From contig DAHWUP010000001.1 of assembly GCA_027334565.1 (NCBI GenBank), positions 16,674-80,673 on the forward strand: a DNA stretch of 64,000 nt, read 5' to 3'. The DNA is from Candidatus Levyibacteriota bacterium (GTDB taxonomy: Bacteria; Patescibacteriota; Microgenomatia; Levybacterales; UBA12049). The translations under genes were made by a program, and so were the position numbers. Below, one piece after another: positions 22,310 through 49,289 of this stretch. Each line of letters begins with the position of its first letter. The first letter of the stretch is position 1. The notes under the pieces were generated by a model. It saw only the letters and a program-made list of their open reading frames with translations, was not told where the DNA came from and made no database searches.

Positions 22310-23491
22310 TCAACGCTTTTGCAGTAACCTTTTTGAATACAGTATTATTAGCGGTAAAACAAATGTAGCCGCCAAGCCGATCGATTCAAACCGGAATAGT
22401 ACCCCGGGATACCCTTTGGCGTAATCGGTCATATAAACATAAGGGATGTAGACAGCTGCGGCAAAAATCGATGCAAAAAACGAAGTCACAAAAATGTATG
22501 ACTTCTTGGAGGTGAATGCCGCCATCGACAGGGGAAATATCAGATACCATGGCTGAAATGTAGTTCTTAGAGTTGCAATCAAAACGGTTAAAAGCGAGAG
22601 GCAGACAGCGGCGGTGAAAAATTTCTCCCAGCTTATTTTTCCTCCCCTCCTTAAGAAAAACTCCAGGATAAAAAATAGGGGCAATAATATCCCTGTTGAA
22701 AATTTGATGCCGATGGAAAAAATATTGCTAATCCATGATAACGCTGTTTTCTTTTGTAAAATAAGATAAATCGATAACAAAATGAAAAAAATCATCGGAA
22801 TGTCGTTATGCGCGGAAATTAACGATTCGATTAGAACCAGGGGGTTAAAAGCAAAAAATACGGTATTGAAAATTTTATGTTCAGGAAAGATCATTTCCGA
22901 AATTTTATAAATTAAATAACAACTGCCCAAAAAAGATAGTCCCATTAATAATTTAAAAAGGAAAAAGGTCGGAAGGAATATGCCGAGGCCTAAAAAAGAC
23001 AAAGGTACCGTTAAAATGAGCCAACTCGGTCCGTAGGGATAAGTTCTGTGCGTCCAACGCATGAAATTAAGCATCGGATCATTAAAAAAATTTCCGGCCG
23101 AATGGAGATACGGATTCTGCTGGTAATGAGTGATTATCCTGGCGTCGAAAATATAATTGAACAGATCGTAAGAAAAAGCGTTATAAGAAAACACCAAGGT
23201 CACAAAGCTTAAAACCGTAAGTATTTTTAGATTTCTAAGAGAAAGCTTACCATTTTTCGCAAGATTTAGAAAAACAAAATAAAAAATGAATAAGAATGTT
23301 AACAAGACCAAAAGGATCAGGGTTGATAACGGCCGTTGGAAAAATCCGATGTATTGCAACGCTTTTTCGGCGGTTTGGTAGACCGATATTTTCGAAAGCG
23401 TAAGATTTAAGTCTACCTGGGTGAACGAATAAACAAAAAAAGTTATCAGCAATAAAACGTAAGAGGAAAAAAGCAGTTTCAACTTACTCAT
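22310..23491 (-). CDS. polytopic membrane protein, possibly DUF2029/GT87-like GT-C mannosyltransferase
   Basis: 393 aa, about 10 TM. Loop motif HYQQNPYLHSAGNFFNDPMLNFMRWTHRTYPYGPSW (NPY...YPYGP) is reminiscent of DUF2029. Family assignment from memory only. Confidence 0.45.
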   Translation of the reverse strand: MSKLKLLFSSYVLLLITFFVYSFTQVDLNLTLSKISVYQTAEKALQYIGFFQRPLSTLILLVLLTFLFIFYFVFLNLAKNGKLSLRNLKILTVLSFVTLVFSYNAFSYDLFNYIFDARIITHYQQNPYLHSAGNFFNDPMLNFMRWTHRTYPYGPSWLILTVPLSFLGLGIFLPTFFLFKLLMGLSFLGSCYLIYKISEMIFPEHKIFNTVFFAFNPLVLIESLISAHNDIPMIFFILLSIYLILQKKTALSWISNIFSIGIKFSTGILLPLFFILEFFLRRGGKISWEKFFTAAVCLSLLTVLIATLRTTFQPWYLIFPLSMAAFTSKKSYIFVTSFFASIFAAAVYIPYVYMTDYAKGYPGVLFRFESIGLAATFVLPLIILYSKRLLQKR

Positions 23492-29315: not shown

Positions 29316-31049
29316 TTATCCGAATGTGAATGCGTAAACCTGCGTTCCCGGGGTTTCGAATTCAAGTTTTACAATGTGCGAACCGGTTTGACCCTTTAGA
29401 TCGATAAGATTGTAAAGCCTGTCCGAATCGACCGTGACCGTTCCGTTTTTTACGTCCGAACCGGCGTTGGCATCATTAACCACTTTATCGTCCAAAAAAA
29501 CTTTTATTTTCGCAGTGCCTTGCGTTCCGGGATTTAAAACCAAAAAAACTTTATTCGCATAAAAATCATAAGTTAGTGTCGCCCCGGGACCGGTGATTGC
29601 GTTTTGGGGCGATATATTCCAGCTTCCCCCCAAAGAGAATGAGTTCACAGGCGGGTTTTCGGACAAGGTGAAATTAGTATTTACCACACCCGTATTTCCG
29701 CTTGGATAATAATACTCCATCCTCTGGGCATTAAGATAAGTCTCGGGGGATAAATTGCCTTGTGGTGTTTGGTCGGGAAGATTGTCAAGCTTAACGGTTA
29801 CTTTTTGACCGGCTTCCTTTAAGAGCTCCCGGATCGCCATTTCGGTCCGGTCATACTCCCCTTCGCCGAAATGCGTCCGCCTGACATTTCCGTTTGCATC
29901 TATAAGGTACTCGGCCGGCCAATACTCGTTGTTATAGTTGTTCCAGGTAGCGTAATCGTTATCCTGAGCGACCGGATAACGTATATCAAACATTTTTATT
30001 GCATTCTCAATGTTTGGAGTACTGTGTTCGAACGCAAATTCCGGCGTATGAACGCCGATTACTACAAAACCTTTATCCTTATACTTGTCGTACCAGCTGG
30101 TGACATGAGAAAGGGTTCTGATGCAATTAATGCAGGTATAGGTCCAGAAATCGACCAGCACCACTTTTCCCCGTAAAGCACTGAGCGATAAAGGCTTATC
30201 CGTGTTCAACCAACCGGTAATACCAACAAAACCCGGCGCGGGATAATCCGCGTTAAAAAGCGAACTGTCGGAAAGCGAAGGTAAATTCAATAAGTTCGAA
30301 GATTTTAACGAATTCAACTGTTGAGTCACCGCGGGATTACTTTCGATAGCCGTAAGCGAGTTTGAGTATGACGGAAAATAGTCCAAAAGTTTCGTCTCCA
30401 AGACCCTGTCATAACCGGTCAGTATCAGCAAAGCGGTCAAGATCATGACCACGCCAAAAACCTGCTGAACACGTCCGGTATATTTTGACAACAGTTTCGT
30501 TTTGCCGAAAACCCTGTTTCCAAGACTTGCAAAAATGAAAAGAGGAATCCCCGCTCCGGCCAGGTAAAAGAAAGTAACAAGTACCGTTGCAAGATTTACT
30601 CTAAGAGTAGCCGACAAGGTTGCGATAGTTGCCAGAATCGGTCCGGCGCAGGGAGTCCAGACCACGCCTAAAGCCAGGCCGGTTACCAAACCCGATAAAA
30701 ATCCTGTTTCTTTGGATACATTTAAATTTCCGAATTTTCCGACCAAACGACTAAGGTAAGCTTCCAAATACCGGCCGAATTTCGGGATTATCAGCGAGAA
30801 ACCGAACAGCCCGATCACCAAAACCGCGAAAAGGCGCAGAAGGTTTGTGTCAAACGGAATTATTTTAACAAGATAAGAAATAAAGAGCGTTAAAATGCCA
30901 AACGACAGCATTATTCCGAACGTTATTCCCAAAGGCTTTCTGTGTCCACCGGTTGAAGACGATAAAACCAATGGAAGAATCGGCCAGATACAGGGGGCGA
31001 AAATAGTAATAAGACCCCCCAAAAACGCAAAGACAAATAGCACCAGCAT
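29316..31049 (-). CDS. CcdA/DsbD-like membrane domain fused to a TlpA/ResA-like thioredoxin domain plus a C-terminal beta-rich domain
   Basis: N-terminal FAPCIWPILPLV (CcdA Cys motif) with several TM. Thioredoxin-fold region VVLVDFWTYTCINCIRTL (CxxC). About 180-aa extra C-terminal domain. Confidence 0.7.
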   Translation of the reverse strand: MLVLFVFAFLGGLITIFAPCIWPILPLVLSSSTGGHRKPLGITFGIMLSFGILTLFISYLVKIIPFDTNLLRLFAVLVIGLFGFSLIIPKFGRYLEAYLSRLVGKFGNLNVSKETGFLSGLVTGLALGVVWTPCAGPILATIATLSATLRVNLATVLVTFFYLAGAGIPLFIFASLGNRVFGKTKLLSKYTGRVQQVFGVVMILTALLILTGYDRVLETKLLDYFPSYSNSLTAIESNPAVTQQLNSLKSSNLLNLPSLSDSSLFNADYPAPGFVGITGWLNTDKPLSLSALRGKVVLVDFWTYTCINCIRTLSHVTSWYDKYKDKGFVVIGVHTPEFAFEHSTPNIENAIKMFDIRYPVAQDNDYATWNNYNNEYWPAEYLIDANGNVRRTHFGEGEYDRTEMAIRELLKEAGQKVTVKLDNLPDQTPQGNLSPETYLNAQRMEYYYPSGNTGVVNTNFTLSENPPVNSFSLGGSWNISPQNAITGPGATLTYDFYANKVFLVLNPGTQGTAKIKVFLDDKVVNDANAGSDVKNGTVTVDSDRLYNLIDLKGQTGSHIVKLEFETPGTQVYAFTFG

Positions 31050-35747: not shown

Positions 35748-38120
35748 TTAATCTACGGGCTCGGGAGGCGATGCATGCAAAATGGGTCTTTGACTTAGTT
35801 TCGGTTCAAGTCTTGGACGCAAAGGCCTTATCAGCGCTATATCCAAAACCTCGTCCATGTGTGAGACAAAGACAAAATCCAGATCTTTTTTAACCTCCTT
35901 GGGTACGTCTTCCAAATCTTTCTTATTATCTTTGGGCAAAATGATGGTTTTTAGGCCGGCGCGATGGGCCGCGATCACTTTTTCCTTGACACCGCCGATC
36001 TCCAGGGCCCTTCCCCTTAAAGTCACTTCACCGGTCATACCGACCGTGCGCTTGACCGGAATCTTGGTTAATGCGGAAACGATTGCCGTAGTGATGGCCA
36101 GACCTGCAGAAGGTCCGTCTTTGGGAACCGCACCTTCCGGAACATGAACATGGACGTCGATTTTCTGATAGAATTTTTCCGGCAAGCCCAAATCCCTGGC
36201 TCTTGCCCGAATGTAAGAAAGCGCGGCCTGACAACTTTCTTTCATTACGTCTCCGAGCTGTCCGGTTAAAAGCAAATTACCTTTTCCGGGCATTAAAGCT
36301 ACTTCTATAAATAGTATGTCCCCGCCGGCCTCGGTCCAGGCCAACCCGGTCGACATCCCTGCTTCGTCCTTTTTCTCGATCAAGGTAGAGCTGACTTTTA
36401 TAGGGCCTAAAAACTTAGGCACATTTTTGTCGGAAACGATAATCTTTTTCTTGCTACCTTCTGCCACCTCCCTGGCAACCTTTCGCAAAATCGAGGCGAT
36501 TTGTCTTTCCAGAGTCCTGACCCCGGCTTCCCTTGTATAATGATCGATCACAAAACGGATCGCGGAATCGGTAATATCTACATGTTTGCCGGTTAAACCG
36601 TGCGCTTCCATTTGTTTCTTCAAAAGAAAGTCTTTGACGATCCTGAATTTTTCTTCCTGCGTGTAACCGGAGAACTGGATCACTTCAAGTCTGTCCCTTA
36701 AAGCCGGTGGTATGGTATCCAAAACATTGGCTGTCGTAACGAACATTACATCCGAGAGATCAAACGGAACCTCAAGGTAGTGATCGGAAAAAAGGTTATT
36801 TTGCTCAGGGTCCAACGCCTCCAAAAGCGCCGATGAAGGATCTCCCCTAAAATCCGCGCCGACCTTATCGATCTCGTCCAGCATGAACACCGGGTTTCTG
36901 GTTCCCGCGTCTTTAATCCCCTGAATGATCCTTCCCGGCATCGCTCCGACATATGTCCTTCTGTGTCCCCTTATCTCGGCTTCATCCCTGATCCCGCCCA
37001 AGGAAATCTTGACGAATTTTCTGCCTAAGGATCTTGCGATGGATTTTCCGATGGAGGTTTTGCCAACGCCCGGCGGTCCGACAAAACAAAGGATCGGTCC
37101 TTTCATTTTTCCCGACAGCTTATGAACCGCCAGATATTCGACTATCCTCTCCTTGACTTTCTCGAGCCCGTAGTGATCTTCGTTTAGAATCTTCTCCGCC
37201 TGTTTGATGTTGACCGTATTCTTGGTTTCAACGCCCCAAGGAAGGCTCAACAGCCAGTCAAGGTAATTTCGGATGTATCCGCCCTCGGGGTTGAACTGGT
37301 TCATCTGTGCCAGCTTTCGAATTTCCTTTTCCGCTTTTTCGGCGATATCGTCGGGCATTTTTGCTTTCTTGAGTTTTTCATACAACTCCTTGATCTCGCT
37401 GTCTTCGTCCGATTCGCCCAGTTCGCTTTGAATGGTCTTAAGTCTTTCCTTAAGCATGACTTCCCTTGCTCCTTTTTCAAACCTTTCCTGTGTTTTTGAG
37501 GCGATCTTTTTCTCAAGCTCCAAAACGCTGATTTCCTTGGACAAAAGGTCGATGACCTTTTCCAAACGCTTTTTGACGTCCAATTCTTCAAGAATGGTTT
37601 GCTTATCCGAGGGCCTAAGCTCTAAAACCGAGGCCACCAGATCTGCAAGTTGCGATGGCGTATTCTCACTCATCACGTTCATGAACACCAAAAAGTCCAC
37701 GAATTTACCCAAGTTTATCGCACGTTTGAATTCGTTTACCAGATGATTGGTCAGGGCTTTGATCTGGGGAGTATCGATAAAAATATCGTCGACTTCCTGA
37801 ACCCTTGCCATCATGAACGGTGAACCTTCAATGTATTCCAGTATGGCGATTCTGGACAATCCCTTGACCTGGGCGTTGATCTCGCCGTCACTTTTAATCA
37901 TGCGTTCGATGTGAGATAATGTACCCACATTATAGAGGTCCGAGGGCGACGGCTCGTTTAGTCTTGAATTCTTCTGTAAGACAAAACCGACGATTCGTTC
38001 CCCGGCAAAGGAGGATTCCAGAGCTGCCAGGCTTTTCGGTCTGCCGAAGGTCAACACCGAATCGGTATTGGGGAAAATGATTCCATCTCTGATTGGAATT
38101 ATAGAAACTATTTTTTCCAT
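35748..38120 (-). CDS. lon: ATP-dependent Lon protease
   Basis: Lon N-domain, Walker A GPPGVGKTS, DEIDK, catalytic PKDGPSAG, 790 aa. Confidence 0.9.
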   Translation of the reverse strand: MEKIVSIIPIRDGIIFPNTDSVLTFGRPKSLAALESSFAGERIVGFVLQKNSRLNEPSPSDLYNVGTLSHIERMIKSDGEINAQVKGLSRIAILEYIEGSPFMMARVQEVDDIFIDTPQIKALTNHLVNEFKRAINLGKFVDFLVFMNVMSENTPSQLADLVASVLELRPSDKQTILEELDVKKRLEKVIDLLSKEISVLELEKKIASKTQERFEKGAREVMLKERLKTIQSELGESDEDSEIKELYEKLKKAKMPDDIAEKAEKEIRKLAQMNQFNPEGGYIRNYLDWLLSLPWGVETKNTVNIKQAEKILNEDHYGLEKVKERIVEYLAVHKLSGKMKGPILCFVGPPGVGKTSIGKSIARSLGRKFVKISLGGIRDEAEIRGHRRTYVGAMPGRIIQGIKDAGTRNPVFMLDEIDKVGADFRGDPSSALLEALDPEQNNLFSDHYLEVPFDLSDVMFVTTANVLDTIPPALRDRLEVIQFSGYTQEEKFRIVKDFLLKKQMEAHGLTGKHVDITDSAIRFVIDHYTREAGVRTLERQIASILRKVAREVAEGSKKKIIVSDKNVPKFLGPIKVSSTLIEKKDEAGMSTGLAWTEAGGDILFIEVALMPGKGNLLLTGQLGDVMKESCQAALSYIRARARDLGLPEKFYQKIDVHVHVPEGAVPKDGPSAGLAITTAIVSALTKIPVKRTVGMTGEVTLRGRALEIGGVKEKVIAAHRAGLKTIILPKDNKKDLEDVPKEVKKDLDFVFVSHMDEVLDIALIRPLRPRLEPKLSQRPILHASPPEPVD

Positions 38121-38135
38121 ATGCTGTTTTTGGTA

Positions 38136-38162
38136 TTAGCACTCTATCATACTAATTGCTAG
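38136..38162. promoter_or_regulatory. CIRCE-like inverted repeat (TTAGCACTC-N9-AATTGCTAG) 16 nt upstream of the lon start
   Basis: The left half is identical to the CIRCE consensus TTAGCACTC. The right half matches GAGTGCTAA at 6 of 9 positions, and the spacer is 9 nt. Confidence 0.4.
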
Positions 38163-38165
38163 AAT

Positions 38166-38230
38166 GTCAAGAGGCTAGCGGCCTCGCCGACCCTGAATGT
38201 GTTTCATGGGTCAAGAGGCTAGCGGCCTCG
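38166..38230. repeat. two copies of a 21-nt direct repeat GTCAAGAGGCTAGCGGCCTCG, each containing a GAGGC/GCCTC hairpin, in the lon/mgtE-N divergent region
   Basis: Exact copies at 38166..38186 and 38210..38230, spaced 44 nt apart. Confidence 0.6.
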
Positions 38231-38281
38231 TGCAGACCAAATTATAACTTGATTCTTAAAATAGGATGAGAATTTTACCGA

Positions 38282-38311
38282 TTGACACAAGATTAGCCAC
38301 AAAACTACAAT
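38282..38311 (+). promoter_or_regulatory. sigma70-type promoter TTGACA-N18-TACAAT ending 9 nt before the ATG (leaderless-type)
   Basis: ttgaca at 38282..38287, tacaat at 38306..38311, ATG at 38321. Confidence 0.5.
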
Positions 38312-38320
38312 TAAAGTGCT

Positions 38321-39517
38321 ATGGTTTACTTAAGTCAATTACTGAATAAGAAGGTGTATTACGACCGCAAGGTCTACGGCGAGATGGTCGACTTTGCCGT
38401 TTTGGAAAGTTCTCCCAAACCGCTGGTTTCGCGGGTAGTGGTAAAAAAGGGTAACAAGAAAATTACCATTTCACCTTCGTTTCTGTCCATCAAGCGAAAC
38501 GGGGCGATTTTAAACTCAAGCCAGGCGCCTTTCTTCCCTTTCGACGAAAGGGATTTTTATTTAAATGAGGACCTATTGGACAAACAGGTTATCGACATCA
38601 ACGACAAAAGGCTGGTACGCGTCAATGACGTTCTTTTGGAAAGTAACGGAGAATTAAAGGTGGTGGGCCTGGATGTGGGTGCTTCGGGAATCTTCCGAAG
38701 GCTCGGGTTGGAACAGTTATTTAAAGTAAAACCGAAAATATTGCCATGGCAGATGATCGAAGCTTTCGACTATCAGACAGGTACGGTGAAGATAAGTCTT
38801 ACCGAGAATAGTGTCAAAAACATGCATCCCTCGGAAATAGCGGAAATCCTGGAGGATCTGGGAGCCAGGGAACGAAGAGGAATAGTCGAAAGTCTTGAAG
38901 CAAAACATGCGGCAAAGGCCATCGAGGAAGCAGACTCAAGGACCCAGGAAGCGATCCTCGAAGAACTTCCTTCAAGCGTTTTAAGAAATATCGTCGGCAA
39001 AATGCACGTTGCGGACATCGCGGGTCTTTTCTACAAAATGAATCCTTTGAGGATCCGGGAGATAATCAAAATGCTAGGAGAGGAACGCGCCAAAAAGGTC
39101 GAACGATTGATCGATTTCGGAACCGACAAGGCGGGCGGTGTGATGCGCACCGGGTTTGTCAGCTTCGACGGAAACACCACCGTCAAAGAAGCCTACAACA
39201 GTCTTTACAAAGACAGGCCGAAACCCGAGGCGGTCCTCGTCACCAACGGCAATGAAAAGCTGGTCGGAACGATTTATGTCAAGGATATTCTGGATATCGA
39301 CTCCCTTGCTTTACTTAAAGATATCGTTTCCGACAGAAAATTCGTATATCCTAACGTTGACCTTAACGAGGTTATCAAACTGTTTGCCCAGTATAACCTG
39401 CGTTCGTTACCGGTTGTGGACAAAGAAAAAAAGCCGATTGGAGTAATCACCACCGGGGTCGTCCTTTCCAAGGTACAGGAAAAGATAAGGGACAATGAAA
39501 ATACTTACATTAATTAG
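38321..39517 (+). CDS. orphan MgtE cytoplasmic module: PRC-barrel-like N-terminus, MgtE N-domain and CBS pair, with no transmembrane domain
   Basis: MgtE_N-like helical region (...IAEILEDLGARERRGIVESLEAKHAAKAIEE...) followed by two CBS motifs (VVDKEKKPIGVITTGVVLSKV). No hydrophobic helices. Overlaps the downstream Nramp gene by 23 nt. Confidence 0.7.
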   Translation: MVYLSQLLNKKVYYDRKVYGEMVDFAVLESSPKPLVSRVVVKKGNKKITISPSFLSIKRNGAILNSSQAPFFPFDERDFYLNEDLLDKQVIDINDKRLVRVNDVLLESNGELKVVGLDVGASGIFRRLGLEQLFKVKPKILPWQMIEAFDYQTGTVKISLTENSVKNMHPSEIAEILEDLGARERRGIVESLEAKHAAKAIEEADSRTQEAILEELPSSVLRNIVGKMHVADIAGLFYKMNPLRIREIIKMLGEERAKKVERLIDFGTDKAGGVMRTGFVSFDGNTTVKEAYNSLYKDRPKPEAVLVTNGNEKLVGTIYVKDILDIDSLALLKDIVSDRKFVYPNVDLNEVIKLFAQYNLRSLPVVDKEKKPIGVITTGVVLSKVQEKIRDNENTYIN

Positions 39518-40751
39518 AAAAAGGTTTTTATTTTTAATTCCGGTGCTGGCGATCGTCGGACCGGGTATCATCTCGGGCTCCGTTGATAACGACGCCGGCG
39601 GAATAACCACTTATTCGGTTGCCGGAGCAAATTTTGGGCATTCTCTTTTATGGATACTTTTTCTAACCACCTTTGCCCTGGCTATAACCCAGGAAATCGG
39701 CGCCAGAATGGGTCTTGTCACCGGAAAAGGACTCGCATCTTTAATCAGGGAAAAATTCGGTATCCGTTGGACAACCTTTGTGATGGCGTGTCTGTTGGTC
39801 GCAAACCTGGGGACCATCGCGGCCGAATTTGCGGGGATCGCGGCTTCAATGGAAATTTACAACATTTCAAAATTTATTTCTGTTCCCATAGCAATAATTT
39901 TGATCTTTGCGTTGGTGGCTAAAGGAAGTTTTAGGAAACTTGAGAAATTATTCCTCCTTTTATCTTTTTTCTATATCGCCTACATCGCCTCCGCTTTCAT
40001 CGTGCACCCCAACTGGACGATGGCGATTAAAAGCCTGGTCATACCGCAGATTAAACTTTCCGGCGTGTATATTTTAACCATGATGGCAGTGATCGGAACA
40101 ACAATTACTCCCTGGGGACAATTCTTTATTCAGGATTATGTCGTCGACAAAAAACTTACCAAAGAGGATATGAATGTCGAAAGAGGTGACGTTTTCTTCG
40201 GGAGCTTCTTAACCAATTTCATCTCCTTTTTTATAATCGTTGCCTGTGCGGCGACGATTTTTACCAAAGGGATTCAGATAACTACCGCCAAAGACGCCGC
40301 CCTGGCACTGCAACCGTTGGCCGGTAATTTTGCCGAGATACTATTTTCGTTCGGGCTTTTAAATGCATCGATTTTCGGTGCGGCCCTGGTTCCGGTCGCA
40401 ACCTCTTATGTCATTACCGAAGCGTTCGGCATAGAATCGGGGCTTAACTATTCAACCAGAGAAACTCCGCAATTTTACGGGCTTTTTATCCTGCTTTTGA
40501 TAATCGGCGGTTTAATGGTCATACTTCCGTTTTTTCCTTTACTGACGATTCTGGTCGTATCCCAGGCGATCAATGCGGTTTTATTGGTACCGATATTTGT
40601 GTTTTTGTACCTTCTCTCAAACGACAAGAAAATCATGGGCGAACACACCAATAATAAAGCCGTGAACGTCATCGTCCTTTTGACCATGGCAGGGTTATCG
40701 GTCGCTTCCCTTATCTATATGGTCTCGCTTTTCTTACCCAACCTGATATAA
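39495..40751 (+). CDS. Nramp-family transporter with non-canonical metal-site motifs (candidate NRMT-like)
   Basis: GPGIISGSVDNDAGGITTYSVAGANFGHSLLWIL aligns to the Nramp TM1 region, with D-A-G-G in place of DPGN. The TM6 region AVIGTTITPWGQF replaces A..MPH. 418 aa, about 11 TM. Confidence 0.8.
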   Translation: MKILTLIRKRFLFLIPVLAIVGPGIISGSVDNDAGGITTYSVAGANFGHSLLWILFLTTFALAITQEIGARMGLVTGKGLASLIREKFGIRWTTFVMACLLVANLGTIAAEFAGIAASMEIYNISKFISVPIAIILIFALVAKGSFRKLEKLFLLLSFFYIAYIASAFIVHPNWTMAIKSLVIPQIKLSGVYILTMMAVIGTTITPWGQFFIQDYVVDKKLTKEDMNVERGDVFFGSFLTNFISFFIIVACAATIFTKGIQITTAKDAALALQPLAGNFAEILFSFGLLNASIFGAALVPVATSYVITEAFGIESGLNYSTRETPQFYGLFILLLIIGGLMVILPFFPLLTILVVSQAINAVLLVPIFVFLYLLSNDKKIMGEHTNNKAVNVIVLLTMAGLSVASLIYMVSLFLPNLI

Positions 40752-40839
40752 ATTTCAAAGCTGTCTTTAAGCATATTTTAAAAACCGAATTACTATACTA
40801 TTATATATACCGTTTTCCTCCAAAATCCCCACCAATGCG

Positions 40840-40859
40840 ATTGTGATTATAATCACAAT
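40840..40859. promoter_or_regulatory. 20-bp perfect palindrome ATTGTGATTATAATCACAAT (with an embedded TATAAT) upstream of the giant adhesin gene
   Basis: Perfect dyad symmetry. A putative promoter, TTGCAT (40866..40871)-N17-TATATG, lies immediately downstream. Candidate operator. Confidence 0.6.
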
Positions 40860-40992
40860 ATTATATTGCATAAATAGCAATAAATATGTATATGAATTGA
40901 ATTACTACGGGTTATTGCATTTTAATATATCGAATGGTACTATTCGGACAATCTTAATTTATACCCGCCCGAATACAATTAGATTAAATTTA

Positions 40993-43900
40993 ATGAAAAA
41001 ATCTTTCCTAAGAAAGATCATTAATATTTTAGGCACTCTTGCGATTATTTCCCAATCGCTTACTCCTTATGTCGTTTTGCTCCCGCAAACATCTTATGCC
41101 CAGGAAACTTCTCCTACTCCGACACCTACCCCGTCGCAAACCACCAACACCAATACCACTACTAATAACAGTACGATCCCAACCGTAACTCCGACACCTG
41201 CGGTATCCCAGACCACCGTTACGCCGACGCCGACGCCAGTAGGCACAACAACCGAAACCCCCACTCCGACACCGACAGATACGACAACGCTAACACCGAC
41301 ACCTTCGATTGATAACACCGCGACTCCATCACCGACACCAACGGGGCTTTCTCCTCCCGATAACGCGACTATATCCGCTTCACCTACTCCAGCTGTTTCA
41401 AGTACACCTACCCAAAATGATTTCCTGTCCACGCCTAGCGGAATTTCAAACACTTCAACAAGTTCAGGTAATATATCACCAAACCTAAATGAATCTTTAA
41501 ATGCCATAATTGTACATAACGTCAAGGCAAATACATTAAATCTTACAAATGTTATATCCCAAGGTAGCGCAACCCTAACAACCAATAAAACCGATTACTC
41601 ACCTACTGATACTGTGGTTATAAATGGAACAGGATTTTTACCAAAAACTACATATACTTTAGAAATCGTATCCAGCGACCCCCCGCCGGTTGACTTTACG
41701 ACTGCAGTAACATCGGATAATAAAGGTGACATTGTTTACGCATATCAATTAGACGGCAATTACCGGCCAAACTATACGGTTTATGCAAAAGATTCGTCTG
41801 GGCAAATAGTTGCGACAACAACATTTACTGACTCGGGGGTAACGGTAAGCGTATTATCATGGAATACAATAGGTGTCGACAGCAATAAGCCAGTTTCAAC
41901 AGGACCCCATCAATTTGTTATTCAAGCAAGAGTAACAAATAATACAGGGTCAAGCATCACAAATGTTTCGGCAATTTTTGCTTTAGGATCTGGAACTTCG
42001 TACATTACCACCTTAGGCCCATTGACACAAAATATAGGAACGCTTGCCAATAATTCGTCTGCCGATGTGTTTTTTCAGGTTGTTATAACTCCACCTCCTT
42101 CTCCAGACAGCCCTAGTAATGCGGTTTACGGTACTAGTAGAAACTATACCGTTACAGCAGATTACACTGATAATTCAGGGGCGCAAGTAGCATCTTATTC
42201 TAACACCCTAACTATATTAGGACTCAATTCCCAAAACAGGAATAGTATTTTATCTACTACCGTAAGCCCTTCTACAATTACCGTTGGGGGTACATTCACC
42301 GTAACTGTAACTTCAAAAACAACCGGCGGTGGAAATTTTACCAACGTATCGGTACCAATGATGTTTGATCCTAATGTTGCCCAAATGATAGGTGATGTAA
42401 CCACTTATCAAATCCCAGCGGGAACTACATTAGATTCATTTTATGACCAAAACGTTGGAGGAGATATACAATCCGTATTTACATTTAAAGCTCTGGCAGC
42501 AGGAACATCAAATTTTTACTGGCTAATTTATGATCAATCTGGAGGAAGTTACCATTATAATTCTGATTATGGACAGGCTATTATAATTACTGTAAAACCT
42601 GGTTTCGGGATAACAAAAACTCCCGCATCACAAACAGTAAACCCGGGCGGGACAGCAAGTTTTTCATCCGTTATTTCCAACAGTGGTAACGGTACGGGAA
42701 CAATTTCATCGATTATAGATACATTGCCTGTTGGTTTTTCTTATAAGACTGGCAGCACTACAGGAATAACTACAAATGATCCAGCGATTAACGGTCAACA
42801 ATTAACATGGACTGGCCCATGGACAATAACCCCTGGGAATTCAATTACCATTAATTATCAGGCAATTGCTTCAACTACTCCCGGAACTTACACCAATTCA
42901 ATTATTGCAAAAGATAGCAATAATAATACAGTAGGACCGGCAACAGCAGATATCATCATCCCTGCTCCCACGGGCTCAATAACCATAGTAAAAGATGCAC
43001 AACCTAATAGCTCCCAATCTTTTTCCTATACCACAACCGGAAACGGACTTTCCAATTTTTCCTTGGTTGATGATGGTATAAACAACACTTATTACACTAC
43101 ATTTAGTAACTTAACTTCAGGAAATTATTCAATAACAGAATCCCCGACAACAGGTTGGTCGCTGACAAACCTTAGTTGTTTGGATAATAATAGTAGTCAG
43201 TCCGTTGGAAGTATAACAAGTAGCACAGCCTCTTTATCGCTTACAGCTGGACAAAACGTAACATGTACCTATACAAACACAAGGGATACGGGAAATATAG
43301 TCATAAATAAAACAGCAATAGGAGGAGATGATATATTTGGATATGCCATAACAGGTCCTTCGGGATACAACTCTTCTCAATCAATAAAAACAAGTTCCGG
43401 AATCGGAACTACCGGAAATATTCCTGTAAATACCGGAAGCGGTTATTCTGTAATAGAAGATACACCACTACCTGCTGGATGGGTGCCGACAAGCGTAGTT
43501 TGTAATAATGGAACCCAAAACGTTTCAAACACCAATTTCAGCGTTTCTAAAGGACAAACAGTAACCTGTACCTTCACTAATACTAAACTCGCAATAATTA
43601 CTGTTGAAAAAAACATGGTTGGAGGCACAGGAACCTTTAACTTTACGGGTAACTTTTCGGGAAGCATAGATACCAATGGGGGAACGATAACAGAATCCGT
43701 TCTGCCCGGAACATATGTTGCAACAGAATCAGCTACAACAGGTTGGGATTTAACCGATATAAGCTGTACCGGAGCCGGCAGTGGTTCGGGAAACTTGGGC
43801 AATTCAACAGCAACATTTAATGTAGCTGCAGGACAAAATGAAACTTGCACATTTACCAACACGAAATATGGTTCAATAACAGTTGTTAAAACCACCACAA

Positions 43901-46900
43901 ACGGCGATGGAACGTTTGACTACACGACAACAGGCGGACTAACTCCATCAACATTCAGCATAACCACAACGGGTGGAAACGGTTCTTTCCCTTATAACAG
44001 CGTATTGCCTGGAAATTACTCGATAACCGAGCTTACTGATGCAAGCTGGCAATTTAACTCATTAAGCTGTATTTCGGGCAACACAAACATTGCAACGTAT
44101 AGCGGGACCACTGCTTTCTTCCCTTTCGCAGCCGGTGAGAATGTTACCTGTACATATGGAAACACAGGTCTTGGGACTTTAATAATAGATAAAAATACAA
44201 CCGGCGGAGACGGCAGTTTTGGCTATACGGTAAACGGCGCAAGTTCTTCCGCACAAACTATTAATACAAGCGGCGGAGCCGGTACAACGGGCCCGCTAAC
44301 CGTAATCGCGGGAAATTACACAGTAACCGAAGCTAGCCAAAGCGGATGGATGCAAAATCCCGGATCATCTTGTTATGATCCATCGACAAGAACAACATAT
44401 TCACCATTTAATGTAACTGTAGGTATTGGAAAAATTGTCACGTGTACATTTAATAATACAAAACTTTCGACTATTAAAATTGTTAAAGATACAAATGGCG
44501 GAAACGGAACTTTTCCTTTCACAACAACAGGCAGTTTAACTCCTTCAACATTTAATATTGACACTATAAAAACTAACCTACAAGAATATGATAATGTAAC
44601 TCCCGGTTCGTATTCAATTTCCGAAACCTCACAAAGCGGATGGGATTTAACAGCACTTTCATGTACATCTTTAAATGGCAATTCAACGACATCAACCAAT
44701 CAATCAACGGGCACGGCTACGATAACCAACCTTGCAGCAGGAGACACAGTCATCTGTACATTTACGAATACTGCTAAGGGTTCATTAACAGTTAATAAGA
44801 TCACTATCCCAACGGGTATTACTACGACATTTAACATTAACGCAACCGGTTCTGGTACAATAACCGGCGGAGGGGCTGGAACAGTTTCAATAACAACCCC
44901 AAAGACTTACGAGGTAACTCCCGGAACATATTATGTTTCCGAAACACCGGCAACCGGATGGACGGAAGATACCAGCAATTGTCAGGGGGTAATCGTTGCC
45001 GCAGGGAAAAACTCAAGCTGTACCATTACAAATACAGAATTATCCAACTTGACTATCGTTAAAAATACAGTTGGGGGTGACGGGACTTTCGATTTTATAG
45101 CAACGGGGTCAGGGCTTAGTAATTTTAGCTTAACAACAGTGAGCGGGATAAAGTCTAAAACTTTCTCCAATATAAATTCGGGAACATATTCTGTAGCAGA
45201 AGACTCTCAAACAGGATGGATATCAGATACTTCAAACCCGCCAACTTGTACCAATGGCGATAATCCTTCATCTATAACTCTAAACCCGGGCGATAATGTG
45301 ACTTGCACTTTTACAAATGATAAATTACCTACGTTAACGGTTACAAAAACACTGTTACCAAATAGTGATTTAGGGAAATTTAACTTATTGATCGACAGTA
45401 ATATTGACGCAACAAATGTCGGTAATGGAGGGACAACCGGTACGCAAATAGTCAGCATAGGTTCGCATACAGTTTCTGAAACTGCCGGAACTTCAACCAA
45501 TCTTTCGGATTACAATGCCATAATCGGTGGAGATTGTGCTCCTGACGGCTCTATAAATTTGGCTGCAGGAGATATCAAAACTTGCACCATAACAAATACA
45601 AGATATGGCTCAATAACTATTGTCAAAAATACTATTGGGGCGGACGGGACTTTCGGCTTTATTGCAACCGGGTCCGGAGTATCAAACTTTGATATATCAA
45701 CAATATCCAACACAGGTTCTCAAACTTTCCCCAAACTATCACCCGGTACATTCTCATTCTCTGAAAATACACCTGCAAGTTGGGTGGAAGGATCAGTTTC
45801 TTGCAAAGATAATTCAACAGGAGGAACTGTTGGTACTGTTGTATCGGGACTTGCGTCATTCAGCCTAACTGCAGGACAAAACATAATCTGTACATTTAAT
45901 AATACCGCGCAGGGAACATTGATAATAGATAAAACAGCATTAGGCGGAGACTCAACTTTTGATTATACTGTTTCGGGTCCAACCAATATGTCACCCAGTA
46001 TTACTACCACAAGCGGTTCTGGAACAACTGGCGGAAAGGTAGTTATAGCAGGAACATACGACATTGCTGAATCTTCACAGGCGGGGTGGGTACAAAAAAA
46101 AGCAACTTGTGACAATGGAGATAATCCATCAAATGTTAACGTAGGCGTTGGAGATACAGTCACCTGCACATTTACTAATACTAAACTTGCCAATCTTACA
46201 ATAGTAAAAAACACAGTCGGCGGGGATGGGACTTTTGACTTTACCACAACCGGCTCGGGACTTAGTAATTTTGACTTAACAACTTCAAACGCAACAGCTT
46301 CTGCACCATTTGCCGATCTTAATCCTGGTTCTTATTCTGTTTCAGAAACTTCACAGCCGGGTTGGACATTAACCTCATCCAGCTGCACGAATGGTGATAA
46401 CCCGTCCAATATCACTTTAAACCCAGGAGATAATGTAATTTGCTATTTTGAAAATACAAAATTAGGAAGTATTACTGTTACCAAATATACCGACCCGGGT
46501 ACAGCCCAAACTTTTAACTTTACTCTAACAGGACTAGCAACCGGTTCGGCAACTACAAATATAGGAGATGGACAATCTTATACTTTTAATCAATTACCTC
46601 CTTCTGTTTCTTATTCCTTATTGGAAAATCCAACCACAGGATGGGATTTAACAGCGCTAAAATGTATTTCCACCAACAACAACTCAACTTTTTCTACGGA
46701 TATACCGACAAGTACAGTAACAATATCTAACCTTACACCAGGAGACAACGTAACCTGCTCATTCGGCAACACCGAAAGTGGGAATGTAATTATTACAAAA
46801 TATAACGACGTTTTGGGACAAGGAGTTTTCGATCAGACTGACCCGACGCTTTCGGGATGGACGATGAATCTGGCAAGCTATTCGGGAGGAATGTCTCAAA

Positions 46901-47733
46901 TAACCGATACAAACGGCATTGCAACATTTAATAATATTGCTCCGACTTCCTATACATTAACCGAAAACCAGCAAAACGGTTGGCAATTGACTGATATGTA
47001 TTGTTCTGGACAGGAAGAAGGGCCTATATTCGGCCCAACATCAACCAGCTACCCATTATTTGTCCAGCCCGGACAAACAATCTATTGCAGAGTCTTAAAC
47101 CACAACCTAATTCCTATCCTTACAATCACAAAAACAAACGATGCGGGCGATAATGTTCTAGGTCCGGGTAGCACGGTCAACTATACAATTACCATAACTG
47201 CAACGCAATCCGCGGCGCAAAATGTAACCGTTACCGACCTTCTTCCCGACGGGTTCCACTATAATTCCGGTTCATGGCAGGCTCTTTTGAACGGAAATCC
47301 TGTTTCCGTTCCTGAACCCACTTATCATTCACCAGGCACCTGGACTCTTGGCAACATGAACGTTGGGGATACTTACACCCTTAAATACTCGGTGACAATT
47401 GACGGCTCTGAAGCAACCGGAACATATTACGATAATGCCTGGGGACAGGGATATTCGGGTTCGGGCAACGTGGTATTAGCAAACGCAACAACCGACCCGG
47501 CACAAGGCTTTATCAATGACCCGACTTTCGTGGGAACCCAGGTTGTAATTGCTGCTTCTAATAATCAGGGCATCAACTATTCTAATCAAGTTACCCAAGA
47601 GGTTCTGGGAGCATCGACTTACCTTCCGGCTACCGGAGAAAATACACTTTGGGTTGTCCTGGCAACCTTACTCGGACTTTCAGGCTTGGGTATGCTATTA
47701 TACGGATTTAAATTAAGGAGAAATAATAAATAA
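40993..47733 (+). CDS. giant (2246-aa) sortase-anchored surface protein
   Basis: Start chosen at MKKSFLRKIINILGTLAIISQSLTPYVVLLPQTSYAQE (signal peptide); the upstream 50-codon extension in the ORF track is rejected. It has a signal peptide, a mucin-like Thr/Pro linker, Ig-like domains, two DUF11 domains and 14 CnaB/SdrD-B-like repeats. The C-terminus is LPATG (47623..47637), a hydrophobic helix and a KLRRNNK tail. Confidence 0.85.
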   Translation: MKKSFLRKIINILGTLAIISQSLTPYVVLLPQTSYAQETSPTPTPTPSQTTNTNTTTNNSTIPTVTPTPAVSQTTVTPTPTPVGTTTETPTPTPTDTTTLTPTPSIDNTATPSPTPTGLSPPDNATISASPTPAVSSTPTQNDFLSTPSGISNTSTSSGNISPNLNESLNAIIVHNVKANTLNLTNVISQGSATLTTNKTDYSPTDTVVINGTGFLPKTTYTLEIVSSDPPPVDFTTAVTSDNKGDIVYAYQLDGNYRPNYTVYAKDSSGQIVATTTFTDSGVTVSVLSWNTIGVDSNKPVSTGPHQFVIQARVTNNTGSSITNVSAIFALGSGTSYITTLGPLTQNIGTLANNSSADVFFQVVITPPPSPDSPSNAVYGTSRNYTVTADYTDNSGAQVASYSNTLTILGLNSQNRNSILSTTVSPSTITVGGTFTVTVTSKTTGGGNFTNVSVPMMFDPNVAQMIGDVTTYQIPAGTTLDSFYDQNVGGDIQSVFTFKALAAGTSNFYWLIYDQSGGSYHYNSDYGQAIIITVKPGFGITKTPASQTVNPGGTASFSSVISNSGNGTGTISSIIDTLPVGFSYKTGSTTGITTNDPAINGQQLTWTGPWTITPGNSITINYQAIASTTPGTYTNSIIAKDSNNNTVGPATADIIIPAPTGSITIVKDAQPNSSQSFSYTTTGNGLSNFSLVDDGINNTYYTTFSNLTSGNYSITESPTTGWSLTNLSCLDNNSSQSVGSITSSTASLSLTAGQNVTCTYTNTRDTGNIVINKTAIGGDDIFGYAITGPSGYNSSQSIKTSSGIGTTGNIPVNTGSGYSVIEDTPLPAGWVPTSVVCNNGTQNVSNTNFSVSKGQTVTCTFTNTKLAIITVEKNMVGGTGTFNFTGNFSGSIDTNGGTITESVLPGTYVATESATTGWDLTDISCTGAGSGSGNLGNSTATFNVAAGQNETCTFTNTKYGSITVVKTTTNGDGTFDYTTTGGLTPSTFSITTTGGNGSFPYNSVLPGNYSITELTDASWQFNSLSCISGNTNIATYSGTTAFFPFAAGENVTCTYGNTGLGTLIIDKNTTGGDGSFGYTVNGASSSAQTINTSGGAGTTGPLTVIAGNYTVTEASQSGWMQNPGSSCYDPSTRTTYSPFNVTVGIGKIVTCTFNNTKLSTIKIVKDTNGGNGTFPFTTTGSLTPSTFNIDTIKTNLQEYDNVTPGSYSISETSQSGWDLTALSCTSLNGNSTTSTNQSTGTATITNLAAGDTVICTFTNTAKGSLTVNKITIPTGITTTFNINATGSGTITGGGAGTVSITTPKTYEVTPGTYYVSETPATGWTEDTSNCQGVIVAAGKNSSCTITNTELSNLTIVKNTVGGDGTFDFIATGSGLSNFSLTTVSGIKSKTFSNINSGTYSVAEDSQTGWISDTSNPPTCTNGDNPSSITLNPGDNVTCTFTNDKLPTLTVTKTLLPNSDLGKFNLLIDSNIDATNVGNGGTTGTQIVSIGSHTVSETAGTSTNLSDYNAIIGGDCAPDGSINLAAGDIKTCTITNTRYGSITIVKNTIGADGTFGFIATGSGVSNFDISTISNTGSQTFPKLSPGTFSFSENTPASWVEGSVSCKDNSTGGTVGTVVSGLASFSLTAGQNIICTFNNTAQGTLIIDKTALGGDSTFDYTVSGPTNMSPSITTTSGSGTTGGKVVIAGTYDIAESSQAGWVQKKATCDNGDNPSNVNVGVGDTVTCTFTNTKLANLTIVKNTVGGDGTFDFTTTGSGLSNFDLTTSNATASAPFADLNPGSYSVSETSQPGWTLTSSSCTNGDNPSNITLNPGDNVICYFENTKLGSITVTKYTDPGTAQTFNFTLTGLATGSATTNIGDGQSYTFNQLPPSVSYSLLENPTTGWDLTALKCISTNNNSTFSTDIPTSTVTISNLTPGDNVTCSFGNTESGNVIITKYNDVLGQGVFDQTDPTLSGWTMNLASYSGGMSQITDTNGIATFNNIAPTSYTLTENQQNGWQLTDMYCSGQEEGPIFGPTSTSYPLFVQPGQTIYCRVLNHNLIPILTITKTNDAGDNVLGPGSTVNYTITITATQSAAQNVTVTDLLPDGFHYNSGSWQALLNGNPVSVPEPTYHSPGTWTLGNMNVGDTYTLKYSVTIDGSEATGTYYDNAWGQGYSGSGNVVLANATTDPAQGFINDPTFVGTQVVIAASNNQGINYSNQVTQEVLGASTYLPATGENTLWVVLATLLGLSGLGMLLYGFKLRRNNK
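41100..41440 (+). repeat. low-complexity mucin-like Thr/Pro-rich linker within the giant protein
   Basis: ETSPTPTPTPSQTTNTNTTTNNSTIPTVTPTPAVSQTTVTPTPTPVGTTTETPTPTPTDTTTLTPTPSIDNTATPSPTPTG... Confidence 0.8.
42973..47115 (+). repeat. array of 14 tandem ~98-aa CnaB/SdrD-B-like repeats with a conserved Lys/Glu/Asn triad
   Basis: Each repeat reads roughly xxTIVK.T.GGDGTFDF...G....SYSVSE....GW.L....C.....NP..ITL..GDNVTCTFTNTK. Repeats 8, 10 and 12 share nearly identical N-terminal halves (NLTIVKNTVGGDGTFDF..TGSGLSNF.LTT). Confidence 0.75.
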
Positions 47734-47738
47734 TTATT

Positions 47739-48689
47739 ATGAATAAACTGTTTAAATCATTGTTAATGTCTTTTGCGGCACTCTTCCTTTTTTCAGGGGT
47801 AAGTTTTGCTTCAACTTCGGTAAGGCTGCAGCAGCCGCAAACACCCACCAACCAGAATGCGTTCAACATCACTTTTGTTGCTTTGGATACCAACTCGTCC
47901 CAGGTTGTAACTGTTCAGTGCCAAAAACAGGGTCCGGGTGATTCAAATCCTGTGAATTTCGGCTCACCTATCACGCTTTCTGCCGGCGGCAATACCAACG
48001 TTTGCCAGGTCGGAAACGGACTATTGAATCAAAACGGCACTTACCAGTTTGACGTAATCGCCTACGGATCAAGCACTACAACCAGCAATACCGTCAACGT
48101 AGACTTTAATACCGATGGACCGGGCACACCCGGCAATTACAATAAAACCAAACCCGACAACTGCACTTACGAGATAACCTTTAGAACGGCCGACGACAAT
48201 GGGAAAACCGTCAAGGTGGTCTTGTACCGTTCGTCCAATCAGAACTTTAGCTTAGACAACGGAACCCAGGTAAACCAGGTTAGTATCGGTTCGAACACCG
48301 ACGGCTCGATGACCGACAACATCAGCCCAAACTGCAATACCAACTATTACTACGCGATCAGGGCTTTTGATAAATACGGAAACGGCTCGGGAGCAACCGG
48401 AGACAGTTCAACATCTACAACAATCATCAGTCCGACAGTTACGCAGCAGGAAGGAGCAATAGCCGGCGGTACCGCGGGAAATGTGCTTGGAGCCGAAGCC
48501 GGTGGACAAGGACAAGTTTTGGGTACGGAAAGTGCAAAACCGACCCAAACCCCTGCAAAAGTAACGGGACAAAATCCTGTTTCAAACGCAGTAAACTGGG
48601 TACTTACCCACAAAAAGGTCAGCTTGCTGGTTCTAATAATTTTGGCAGCGATTGCATACTTTCTTTACCGCAGATACTATAAAAAGTAA
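47739..48689 (+). CDS. secreted Ig/Fn3-like protein with a C-terminal membrane anchor
   Basis: Signal peptide MNKLFKSLLMSFAALFLFSGVSFAS, two beta-rich domains (...NYYYAIRAFDKYGNGSG), then a Gly/Ala-rich stretch and a C-terminal TM with an RRYYKK tail. No canonical LPXTG (nearest is PAKVTG). Confidence 0.6.
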   Translation: MNKLFKSLLMSFAALFLFSGVSFASTSVRLQQPQTPTNQNAFNITFVALDTNSSQVVTVQCQKQGPGDSNPVNFGSPITLSAGGNTNVCQVGNGLLNQNGTYQFDVIAYGSSTTTSNTVNVDFNTDGPGTPGNYNKTKPDNCTYEITFRTADDNGKTVKVVLYRSSNQNFSLDNGTQVNQVSIGSNTDGSMTDNISPNCNTNYYYAIRAFDKYGNGSGATGDSSTSTTIISPTVTQQEGAIAGGTAGNVLGAEAGGQGQVLGTESAKPTQTPAKVTGQNPVSNAVNWVLTHKKVSLLVLIILAAIAYFLYRRYYKK

Positions 48690-48698
48690 AATAGAATC

Positions 48699-49289
48699 GT
48701 GAAACTTCTCTCAAGAATTCTAATAACAATTGGGTTACTTTTGATTTTTTCTTCGGTTGTTCTATTTGTGTACATTTTCGCACCGGTGGCAAAAGTCGAA
48801 CTAAATTATGACCTTAACCGGCCCAGGGCAAACATCAATCAGATTACGCCTGTGGACAAAAATTTCGACATCGTCATTCCCAAGATAGGCGCCAACGCCA
48901 GGATAATTCCAAACGTAGACCCATTCAATTCAAACGTTTACGAACTGGCACTTTCCAAAGGCGTCGCGCAGGCCAAAGGCTCCGCCTTCCCCAACCAAAC
49001 CGGCAATATGTTCCTGTTTTCCCATTCCTCGGCCAACCTTTTGGAAGCTACGCGTTTCAATTCGATATTTTATCTACTATCAAAGTTAAATAAAGCAGAT
49101 GTAATTTATATTTATTACAATAATACAAGATACAAATACGTTGTGTCGGGAACCAAACTTGTTGACCCTTCCGACGTTTCTTATTTAAATCCGAAATCCA
49201 GCGTTAAACAGCTGACTTTGATGACTTGCTGGCCTGCAGGTACTAATTACAAAAGACTGATTGTAATTGCAAAATCTCTAAGTAAATAA
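48699..49289 (+). CDS. sortase (GTG start)
   Basis: N-terminal TM anchor, His region FLFSHSS, catalytic TLxTC motif QLTLMTCWP (Cys codon near 49228), conserved Arg in YKRLIVIA. 196 aa. Confidence 0.7.
   Translation: MKLLSRILITIGLLLIFSSVVLFVYIFAPVAKVELNYDLNRPRANINQITPVDKNFDIVIPKIGANARIIPNVDPFNSNVYELALSKGVAQAKGSAFPNQTGNMFLFSHSSANLLEATRFNSIFYLLSKLNKADVIYIYYNNTRYKYVVSGTKLVDPSDVSYLNPKSSVKQLTLMTCWPAGTNYKRLIVIAKSLSK

Follow-up and report, generated by a model that had tools for sequence, protein, structure and literature searches.

An NRMT-clade transporter and its MgtE-like cytoplasmic partner in a Candidatus Levyibacteriota genome: a further case of a known gene pairing

Why would the cytoplasmic half of an MgtE channel be encoded by itself, without a pore, directly ahead of a transporter of an unrelated fold? 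The question is raised by a locus within a 64,000-nt stretch of a Candidatus Levyibacteriota genome (GCA_027334565.1, contig DAHWUP010000001.1, positions 16,674 to 80,673 of the forward strand), here called the window, whose own numbering we use throughout. An earlier reading of this DNA from its letters and open reading frames (ORFs), referred to below as the sequence-only reading, had placed two ORFs at 38321-39517 and 39495-40751, and we find at the same coordinates a two-gene operon on the + strand, in which a gene for an MgtE-like soluble protein (the partner) precedes one for an Nramp-related Mg2+ transporter (NRMT). We consider it probable that this is a coupled operon uniting an NRMT importer with a cytoplasmic regulatory partner acting in trans. 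The sequence-only reading believed such a pairing to be undescribed, but Shin et al. (PLoS Genet 2014, PMC4072509), who named these transporters NrmT, had reported that most NrmT genes adjoin a gene for the MgtE N-terminal cytoplasmic domain and had proposed cytoplasmic feedback regulation by the MgtE-like fragment. The locus is therefore an ordinary further case of a known NRMT plus MgtE-like system, and both the pairing and the hypothesis date from 2014. What goes beyond that study is the presence of tandem PRC barrels in the partner, the existence of PRC-bearing MgtE channels as its relatives, and the loss of ligands in the Levybacterial clade. The genes and their junction are as follows.

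38321..39517, + strand: partner gene, 398 aa (ORF, Pfam, NCBIfam, PDB sequence matches, AlphaFold2 (AF2) and Foldseek)
39495..40751, + strand: NRMT gene, 418 aa, an SLC11/Nramp-related Mg2+(/Mn2+) transporter by homology (Pfam, PDB match)
39495..39517, + strand: overlap of the partner and NRMT genes, 23 nt, with AAGGGA 3 nt 5' of the NRMT ATG (sequence)

The downstream gene encodes a clear member of the NRMT clade, as judged from its sequence. It covers the Pfam Nramp model end to end (309 bits), and its best solved relative in a search of PDB sequences is EleNRMT of Eggerthella lenta (7qia, E = 5.4e-98), followed by the canonical DPGN/MPH transporter 10ky (2.7e-31) and by DraNramp (about 1e-17). 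The bit scores fall in the same manner, from 332 for 7qia to at most 66 for DraNramp, 46 for ScaDMT-type chains and at most 41 for EcoDMT-type chains. In a pairwise alignment the transporter and EleNRMT are 41% identical across 387 aligned residues. The NRMT clade is distinguished by the signature DxxG-TxxA/T, as opposed to the DxxN-AxxM of canonical Nramps (Ramanadane et al. 2022, PMC8806188), and the corresponding codons of the window transporter are the following.

39591..39602, + strand: helix-1 metal-site codons D33-A34-G35-G36, DxxG versus the canonical DPGN (alignment to EleNRMT)
40098..40115, + strand: helix-6 metal-site codons T202-T-I-T205-P-W207, with TxxT for AxxM and Trp for the proton-pathway His

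On EleNRMT, these and the other relevant positions correspond to D55 (D33 in the window), G58 (G36), E133 (E111), T224 (T202), A227 (T205), W229 (W207), N234 (I212) and Q379 (Q357). All EleNRMT residues that were assayed by mutation are also present in the window transporter, and the sole departure at the metal site is T205, at the former Met position, which is the "T" option of the DxxG-TxxA/T signature. Furthermore, both proton-pathway histidines of helix 6b are substituted, by W207 and I212, neither of which can be protonated. EleNRMT has been shown to carry Mg2+ and Mn2+ without proton coupling, and mutation of its T224 abolished the transport of Mg2+ but not that of Mn2+ (PMC8806188). By homology to EleNRMT, the window NRMT would likewise transport Mg2+.

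One might argue instead that the motif changes are alignment artefacts and that the transporter is a canonical MntH-type proton-coupled importer of Mn2+/Fe2+, as weak matches to the NCBIfam MntH and nramp models could suggest. However, these matches remain well under the cutoff (104 bits versus 430), DPGN and MPH are not found, and an ungapped HMMER alignment puts DAGG on NDAGG and TTITPW on TTIAPW of EleNRMT, the same metal-site motifs being present in 24/24 orthologues. The alignment to EleNRMT and the orthologue motifs refute this explanation, to which we give practically no chance. The substitutions are thus genuine, and the view of the sequence-only reading that D-A-G-G in the first transmembrane (TM) helix and T-T-I-T-P-W in the sixth are NRMT-like is borne out by the alignment.

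A second, Nramp-related paralogue, about 30% identical to the NRMT, lies within 2-3 kb of the operon in some Levybacterial relatives. This paralogue, recognizable by D-P-S-G in helix 1 and T-T-I-S-P-Y in helix 6, was not found in the window. Its copies are the following.

Locus L011, 7550-8758, - strand: Nramp-related paralogue
Locus L013, 3109-4317, - strand: Nramp-related paralogue
Locus L018, 2666-3925, + strand: Nramp-related paralogue

The partner consists of the following four parts and a short C-terminal helix. The sequence-only reading had recognized the MgtE N-domain and the CBS pair, while the PRC barrel at residues 79-158 was missing from its domain list.

38321..38554, + strand: PRC-barrel-like module 1, residues 1-78, a diverged copy of module 2 (hhalign; all-beta in AF2)
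38555..38794, + strand: PRC-barrel module 2, residues 79-158 (Pfam PF05239, 29.3 bits versus a cutoff of 21.2)
38822..39118, + strand: MgtE_N helical domain, residues 168-266 (Pfam, 58.6 bits)
39137..39490, + strand: CBS pair, residues ~273-390 (Pfam, two CBS domains, 64.9 bits)

Pfam and hydrophobicity both confirm that an MgtE N-domain and a CBS pair are present without the TM pore. No TM segment was detected in the partner, its highest 19-residue Kyte-Doolittle window reaching 1.32 versus a threshold of 1.6, and the NCBIfam mgtE model (450 positions) is matched only at 20-254, which is the cytoplasmic part. The best PDB sequence matches are the MgtE cytoplasmic domains 2yvy, 2yvx and 2oux (E ~5e-18). 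In the AF2 model (mean pLDDT 76.7), two beta-rich N-terminal modules are followed by a helical domain (162-263), the CBS pair (270-378) and a C-terminal helix (378-397), and a Foldseek search with this model ranks MgtE cytosolic domains at the top (E ~1e-17). Residues 1-78 alone have no Pfam match. Nevertheless, the family profile of residues 1-78 matches that of residues 79-160 in hhalign (probability 93%, E = 2.6e-7), and Pfam PRC matches are found at residues 1-77 in the homologues P0280 and P0359; we therefore read the partner N-terminus as tandem, diverged PRC barrels. The most conserved block of the whole family (FYLNEDLLDKQVID...RVND; invariant columns among 49 relatives) falls in PRC module 2.

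Is this protein a family of its own, or what is left of a channel? An exhaustive HMMER search with the partner against 1.84 billion cluster representatives returned 4659 matches at E<=1e-3, of which 231 reach E<=1e-30. Taking the 150 best cluster representatives, about 130 prove to be TM-less proteins of 395-450 aa in which the query is matched whole, and a group of more than 120 close homologues spans 366-422 aa, always without PF01769. Six matches of about 600 aa, on the other hand, are full MgtE channels, in which the PRC-MgtE_N-CBS region is joined to the PF01769 pore. These PRC-MgtE channels (e.g. P0359 and P0374) are the closest TM-bearing relatives, with 28-30% identity over partner residues 1-390, and in the one context examined no Nramp neighbour was found beside such a channel. 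Since they exist, the soluble partner can be equated with the cytoplasmic half of MgtE as found in a PRC-bearing subfamily. They are also what could recommend another explanation, namely that the window ORF is what a full-length mgtE left behind after disruption, or that its product works alongside an MgtE pore made from another gene. Against it stand the TM-less homologues just described, the position of the NRMT start inside the last codons of the partner gene, which leaves no space for a pore domain, and the partner ORF itself, which is intact and holds many invariant residues. Moreover, no MgtE TM domain was found in the window (best tblastn E = 0.62). The sequence-only reading had named a TM domain nearby or in the orthologues as an observation that would speak against its proposal; what we find are orthologues of about 395-450 aa without TM segments and a window without an MgtE TM domain. 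The broken-gene explanation is effectively refuted, and we regard it as very improbable. In sequence terms, partner and channel are related by a split or fusion at the level of the family and not by local gene decay.

Translation of the partner and NRMT genes is probably coupled, given their arrangement in the sequence. The 23-nt overlap, already proposed in the sequence-only reading, holds only if the NRMT starts at ATG 39495, whereas an automatic gene call on an identical contig starts it at a GTG at codon 17. We take the overlap to be real because ATG 39495 and the basic N-terminal peptide that follows are kept in 21/21 Levybacterial NRMT sequences, 12 of which have no other start codon ahead of the conserved GPG motif. 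The junction is also similar elsewhere: the two genes overlap by 14 or 23 nt in 19/21 Levybacterial loci, by 23 nt in Nanoarchaeota and by 4 nt in Clostridia, and are separated by a gap of 8-9 nt in Chloroflexota-type loci. At locus L004 (2519-2613), the partner frame extends 95 nt into the NRMT gene, not 14 or 23, which could mean that a stop codon was lost or that the assembly is in error.

The pairing itself is conserved far beyond chance. The nearest relatives of the pair belong to Candidatus Levybacteria/Levyibacteriota and other Patescibacteria metagenome-assembled genomes (MAGs). We examined 28 genome loci with a partner homologue: in 24 of them an NRMT comes directly after it, 3 are cut inside the partner gene and 1 (L026, an Anaerolineae MAG) is uninformative, so that the NRMT directly follows the partner in 24/24 of the genome loci that show a downstream NRMT match. 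Locus L026 might have passed for an exception to the synteny, but was dropped because its contig ends 288 nt past the partner stop, where a spacer of about 180 nt leads into 37 codons of an ORF that could not be identified. Among the loci are one from a Nanoarchaeota MAG, one from a Clostridia MAG and others from MAGs of Chloroflexota type, whose partners are 26-30% identical to that of the window and align over residues 1-378, PRC region included; all downstream transporters bear NDAGG and GTTI(T/A)PW. We also sampled six diverse clusters of TM-less partners, of which four were informative, and an NRMT of the same signature lies downstream in 4/4. Finally, next to an Eggerthellaceae NRMT with 91% identity to EleNRMT we find, at a distance of 4 nt on its upstream side, a gene for a PRC-MgtE_N-CBS protein of 450 aa. 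Altogether, the neighbourhood survey that the sequence-only reading had suggested finds the partner next to an NRMT in 29/29 informative loci (24 genome loci, 4 clusters and Eggerthellaceae).

What might the partner do for the transporter? We infer the ion carried, the contact between partner and NRMT, the direction of regulation and the signal sensed as follows. The NRMT, by sequence homology to EleNRMT, would import hydrated Mg2+, and also Mn2+, without proton coupling. The partner would be made in step with the transporter and dock on its cytoplasmic face, from where it may limit uptake in trans once the cell is replete, by analogy with the role that the same module plays in cis in MgtE. 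A proton-uncoupled Mg2+/Mn2+ carrier plausibly needs such a brake. We favour a regulatory role in trans because the synteny is conserved, because of what the module does in MgtE, and because its ligands are retained in most partner lineages.

This retention can be followed position by position. The gating ligands of Thermus thermophilus MgtE (TtMgtE) are D91 and D247 for Mg4, D226 and D250 for Mg5, D95 for Mg6 and E59 for Mg7 (PMC5882242), and Mg4, Mg5 and Mg7, which genuine MgtEs require for function, show strict conservation across three crystallised members (PMC10200709). Among the six PRC-MgtE channels, D91, D95, D247 and D250 are kept in 6/6 and E59 in 5/6, D226 being present in only 3/6. 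Among 122 further TM-less partner clusters, D91 is found in 96, D95 in 114 and D247 in 103, with an acidic residue (D/E) in 95 at the position of E59 and in 78 at that of D250. On these counts, the partner family as a whole looks like an Mg2+-clamp sensor.

Several observations, however, weigh against a regulatory partner of this kind at the window locus, first among them the state of its own ligand sites. The window partner carries K199, A231 and G235 at the positions of E59, D91 and D95, and N359, V380 and S383 at those of D226, D247 and D250, so that six of six acidic ligands of TtMgtE (Mg4-Mg7) are replaced; a second, independent mapping confirmed these assignments. The replacements are shared by the Levybacterial clade (49 members), which has K/M/R199, A/S/T231, N359 in 49/49, I/V380 and S/A383, none of them conserved as acidic, whereas roughly half of its members still have D/E at position 235, that of Mg6. 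By sequence, this clade, which belongs to the candidate phyla radiation (CPR), has thus lost both halves of Mg4, both halves of Mg5, and Mg7, and the window protein has lost Mg6 as well. The signal in the Levybacterial lineage cannot be Mg2+ at the classical Mg4/Mg5/Mg7 sites. The ATP site of the MgtE CBS domains (Y170, R187, D188, N203 and F227; PMC5529423) is only partly kept: the equivalents in the partner are K321 and D322 (both invariant), S337 and L360, the Tyr170 equivalent being deleted, Asn203 replaced by Ser/Thr and Phe227 by Leu. Leu at the latter position is also usual in PRC-MgtE channels. In addition, the pTM of the AF2 partner model is 0.40, which makes its inter-domain geometry unreliable.

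Published complementation results point in the same direction. The NrmTs of C. acetobutylicum complemented for Mg2+ in the absence of the partner, and adding the partner to the A. capsulatum NrmT by co-expression did not improve rescue. This latter NrmT, the one assayed among those that have an adjacent MgtE-like gene and no M-box, behaved as a Mn2+ transporter: it rescued a Mn2+ transport defect, but an Mg2+ defect only poorly (PMC4072509). An M-box riboswitch upstream served in the same study as a marker of Mg2+ specificity, not as a strict requirement (PMC4072509), and neither the window nor any of 20 related loci matches the M-box model (RF00380) at the gathering threshold. Rfam models searched over 37500-41500 at E<=1 returned nothing except the long non-coding RNA MESTIT1_3, which we discard as a chance match below the cutoff (23 bits versus 60, E = 0.095). 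The upstream region contains the following element.

38282..38311, + strand: sigma-70-like promoter TTGACA-18 nt-TACAAT, 11/12 consensus matches (pattern match)

This candidate promoter ends 9 nt from the partner ATG; the transcript would therefore be nearly leaderless, leaving a riboswitch without room. Considering all these points, two claims of the sequence-only reading stand in part. Of the modular Mg2+ uptake system that it proposed, the NRMT and its conserved, coupled module are supported, while Mg2+ sensing is doubtful at the window locus. Similarly, its idea of the partner as an Mg2+ sensor agrees with the ligands mostly retained in other partner lineages, but not with their replacement in the window partner, where the ATP site is also partial.

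The main rival is that the transporter chiefly imports Mn2+ (a transition metal) and that the partner responds to Mn2+ or to something else. A. capsulatum NrmT offers a precedent, combining a partner gene, no M-box, Mn2+ rescue and poor Mg2+ rescue; EleNRMT carries Mn2+ too; and the window locus has no detected M-box, a Thr rather than an Ala at the former Met position, and a partner whose classical Mg2+ ligands are lost. Yet T202, the equivalent of the EleNRMT T224 that is needed for Mg2+ and not for Mn2+, is conserved together with G36, and TxxT belongs to the published NRMT signature (PMC8806188). The Eggerthellaceae locus, moreover, is also without an M-box, although EleNRMT transports Mg2+. 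We consider a transporter dedicated chiefly to Mn2+ to be rather unlikely.

A further alternative is that the partner is not a gate at all, but a metal chaperone or buffer that takes over ions from the transporter and passes them on, or else a factor for assembly or stability, and that it may be ligand-independent in the Levybacterial clade. Chaperone activity was offered as an alternative role by Shin et al. (PMC4072509), who also found the partner dispensable for complementation. The degenerate Mg2+ and ATP ligand positions of the Levybacterial clade fit this view, as do the PRC block and many other acidic columns that remain conserved there. On the other side, most partner lineages keep the inter-domain clamp ligands used in MgtE gating, which suits a conformational sensor better than a carrier. 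To our knowledge, no chaperone has an MgtE-like partner fold, which we also count against this alternative, and we judge it quite unlikely.

Returning to a regulatory partner in trans, we can offer a more general and tentative idea, which we hold possible but less likely than not. PRC-PRC-MgtE_N-CBS may be a portable regulatory module that acts on two kinds of Mg2+ transporter with unrelated folds, in MgtE on a pore of the same chain (in cis) and in NRMT systems on a separate carrier (in trans), with the PRC barrels serving to dock or gate. The Levybacterial cassette could then be ligand-independent, or could sense another signal via newly conserved acidic positions.

Although the locus matters little as a discovery, the structure and function of the transporter family having been characterised since 2022, it retains some value as a pointer toward the function of the partner. 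The EleNRMT structure paper of 2022 (PMC8806188) does not mention the partner, and in the literature we searched we found no paper with later functional work on a partner of NRMT/SLC11 and none naming PRC barrels together with MgtE. For experiments, the pair from Eggerthella is the evident choice, since its partner adjoins a 91% relative of the crystallised EleNRMT. The PRC-bearing full-length MgtE channels provide a natural comparison between cis and trans arrangements, and the CPR clade, in effect a natural "ligand-site knockout", may be used as a control for the sensor.

Other sequence elements lie near the operon. The intergenic region between lon and the partner gene contains a direct repeat.

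38166-38186 and 38210-38230, no strand assigned: 21-nt direct repeat GTCAAGAGGCTAGCGGCCTCG, two perfect copies, in the lon-partner intergenic region

Each copy holds a small GAGGC/GCCTC hairpin, and the repeat is unique to these two copies within the window, where 0 matches are expected by chance. Judging from its sequence and position, it could be a candidate operator for lon or for the partner gene. As a conserved operator of the NRMT system it was rejected, its 15-nt core being absent from 31 loci. Just upstream of lon (start 38120, - strand) lies a CIRCE-like element, TTAGCACTC-N9-AATTGCTAG, at 38136-38162; its first half agrees in full with the HrcA operator consensus (TTAGCACTC), its second (AATTGCTAG) only partially. 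At the Anaerolineae locus L026, a c-di-AMP riboswitch (75 bits; 1543-1743, - strand) lies about 2.3 kb upstream of the partner on the opposite strand and probably has nothing to do with the NRMT operon.

The flanking genes are unrelated to the operon, with lon and a major facilitator superfamily (MFS) gene upstream and an LPXTG surface protein and a sortase downstream. The surface protein (40843-47733, probable start ATG 40994) is a repetitive protein of 2296 aa with SpaA/CLIPPER-type repeats, and ends in LPATGEN, a hydrophobic segment and RRNNK, which together make up a sortase sorting signal; next come a 316-aa ORF (47739-48689) and the sortase gene (48699-49289). No CorA or MgtE was found among the window ORFs of at least 180 aa, and a P-type ATPase considered as a possible MgtA was rejected as being of the P1B heavy-metal type. 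A VIT1-family protein is encoded at 59859-60575 (+ strand; 227 bits, no NCBIfam model matched). This family includes Fe2+/Mn2+ efflux or sequestration transporters, and the gene would, by that family role, be a second metal-homeostasis gene in the window. The ORF at 29316-31049 (- strand) encodes a 577-aa fusion of a DsbD-type transmembrane domain, an AhpC/TSA-redoxin domain and a thioredoxin-like C-terminal domain. Finally, a long cluster for cell-envelope glycosylation occupies 1168-24261 (- strand) and 61272-63026. Besides GT1 and several GT2, it contains a Polysacc_synt flippase and three YfhO-like proteins, as well as PMT_2/ArnT-like paralogues of ~550 aa arranged in a run (11723-18414 and 20755-22278), and two of its ORFs, 13435-15087 and 22310-23491, have no Pfam match.

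How, then, does the locus compare with the systems already known? With EleNRMT (PDB 7QIA/7QIC), the transporter shares the clade, the D, G, T and Q of the binding site and the replacement of the helix-6b histidines, and differs from it by TxxT where EleNRMT has TxxA, by a shorter N-terminus and by its CPR host. The partner resembles the cytoplasmic domain of T. thermophilus MgtE (2YVY/2ZY9/5X9G) in its N domain and CBS pair, which are homologous, and in a short helix after CBS2 that stands where the plug helix begins; unlike that channel, it lacks a pore and has 160 additional N-terminal residues, which form the two PRC barrels. The PRC-MgtE_N-CBS-MgtE(TM) channels come closer, having the same cytoplasmic architecture, PRC N-terminus included, but they have the pore in cis, and at five of the six ligand positions the residues are almost fully retained. 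With regard to the NrmT operons of C. acetobutylicum (Ca_c0685/Ca_c3329) and A. capsulatum, the window locus differs in having no M-box and in encoding its partner in one gene, which is split in two at Ca_c0685. Shin et al. (2014) refer to the partner as a 'small protein' and leave the PRC barrels unmentioned, and the ligand loss is a feature of the Levybacterial clade. What the window locus and these operons have in common is the arrangement itself, in which a homologue of the MgtE cytoplasmic region is encoded beside an Nramp-related transporter, together with the feedback role proposed for that homologue.

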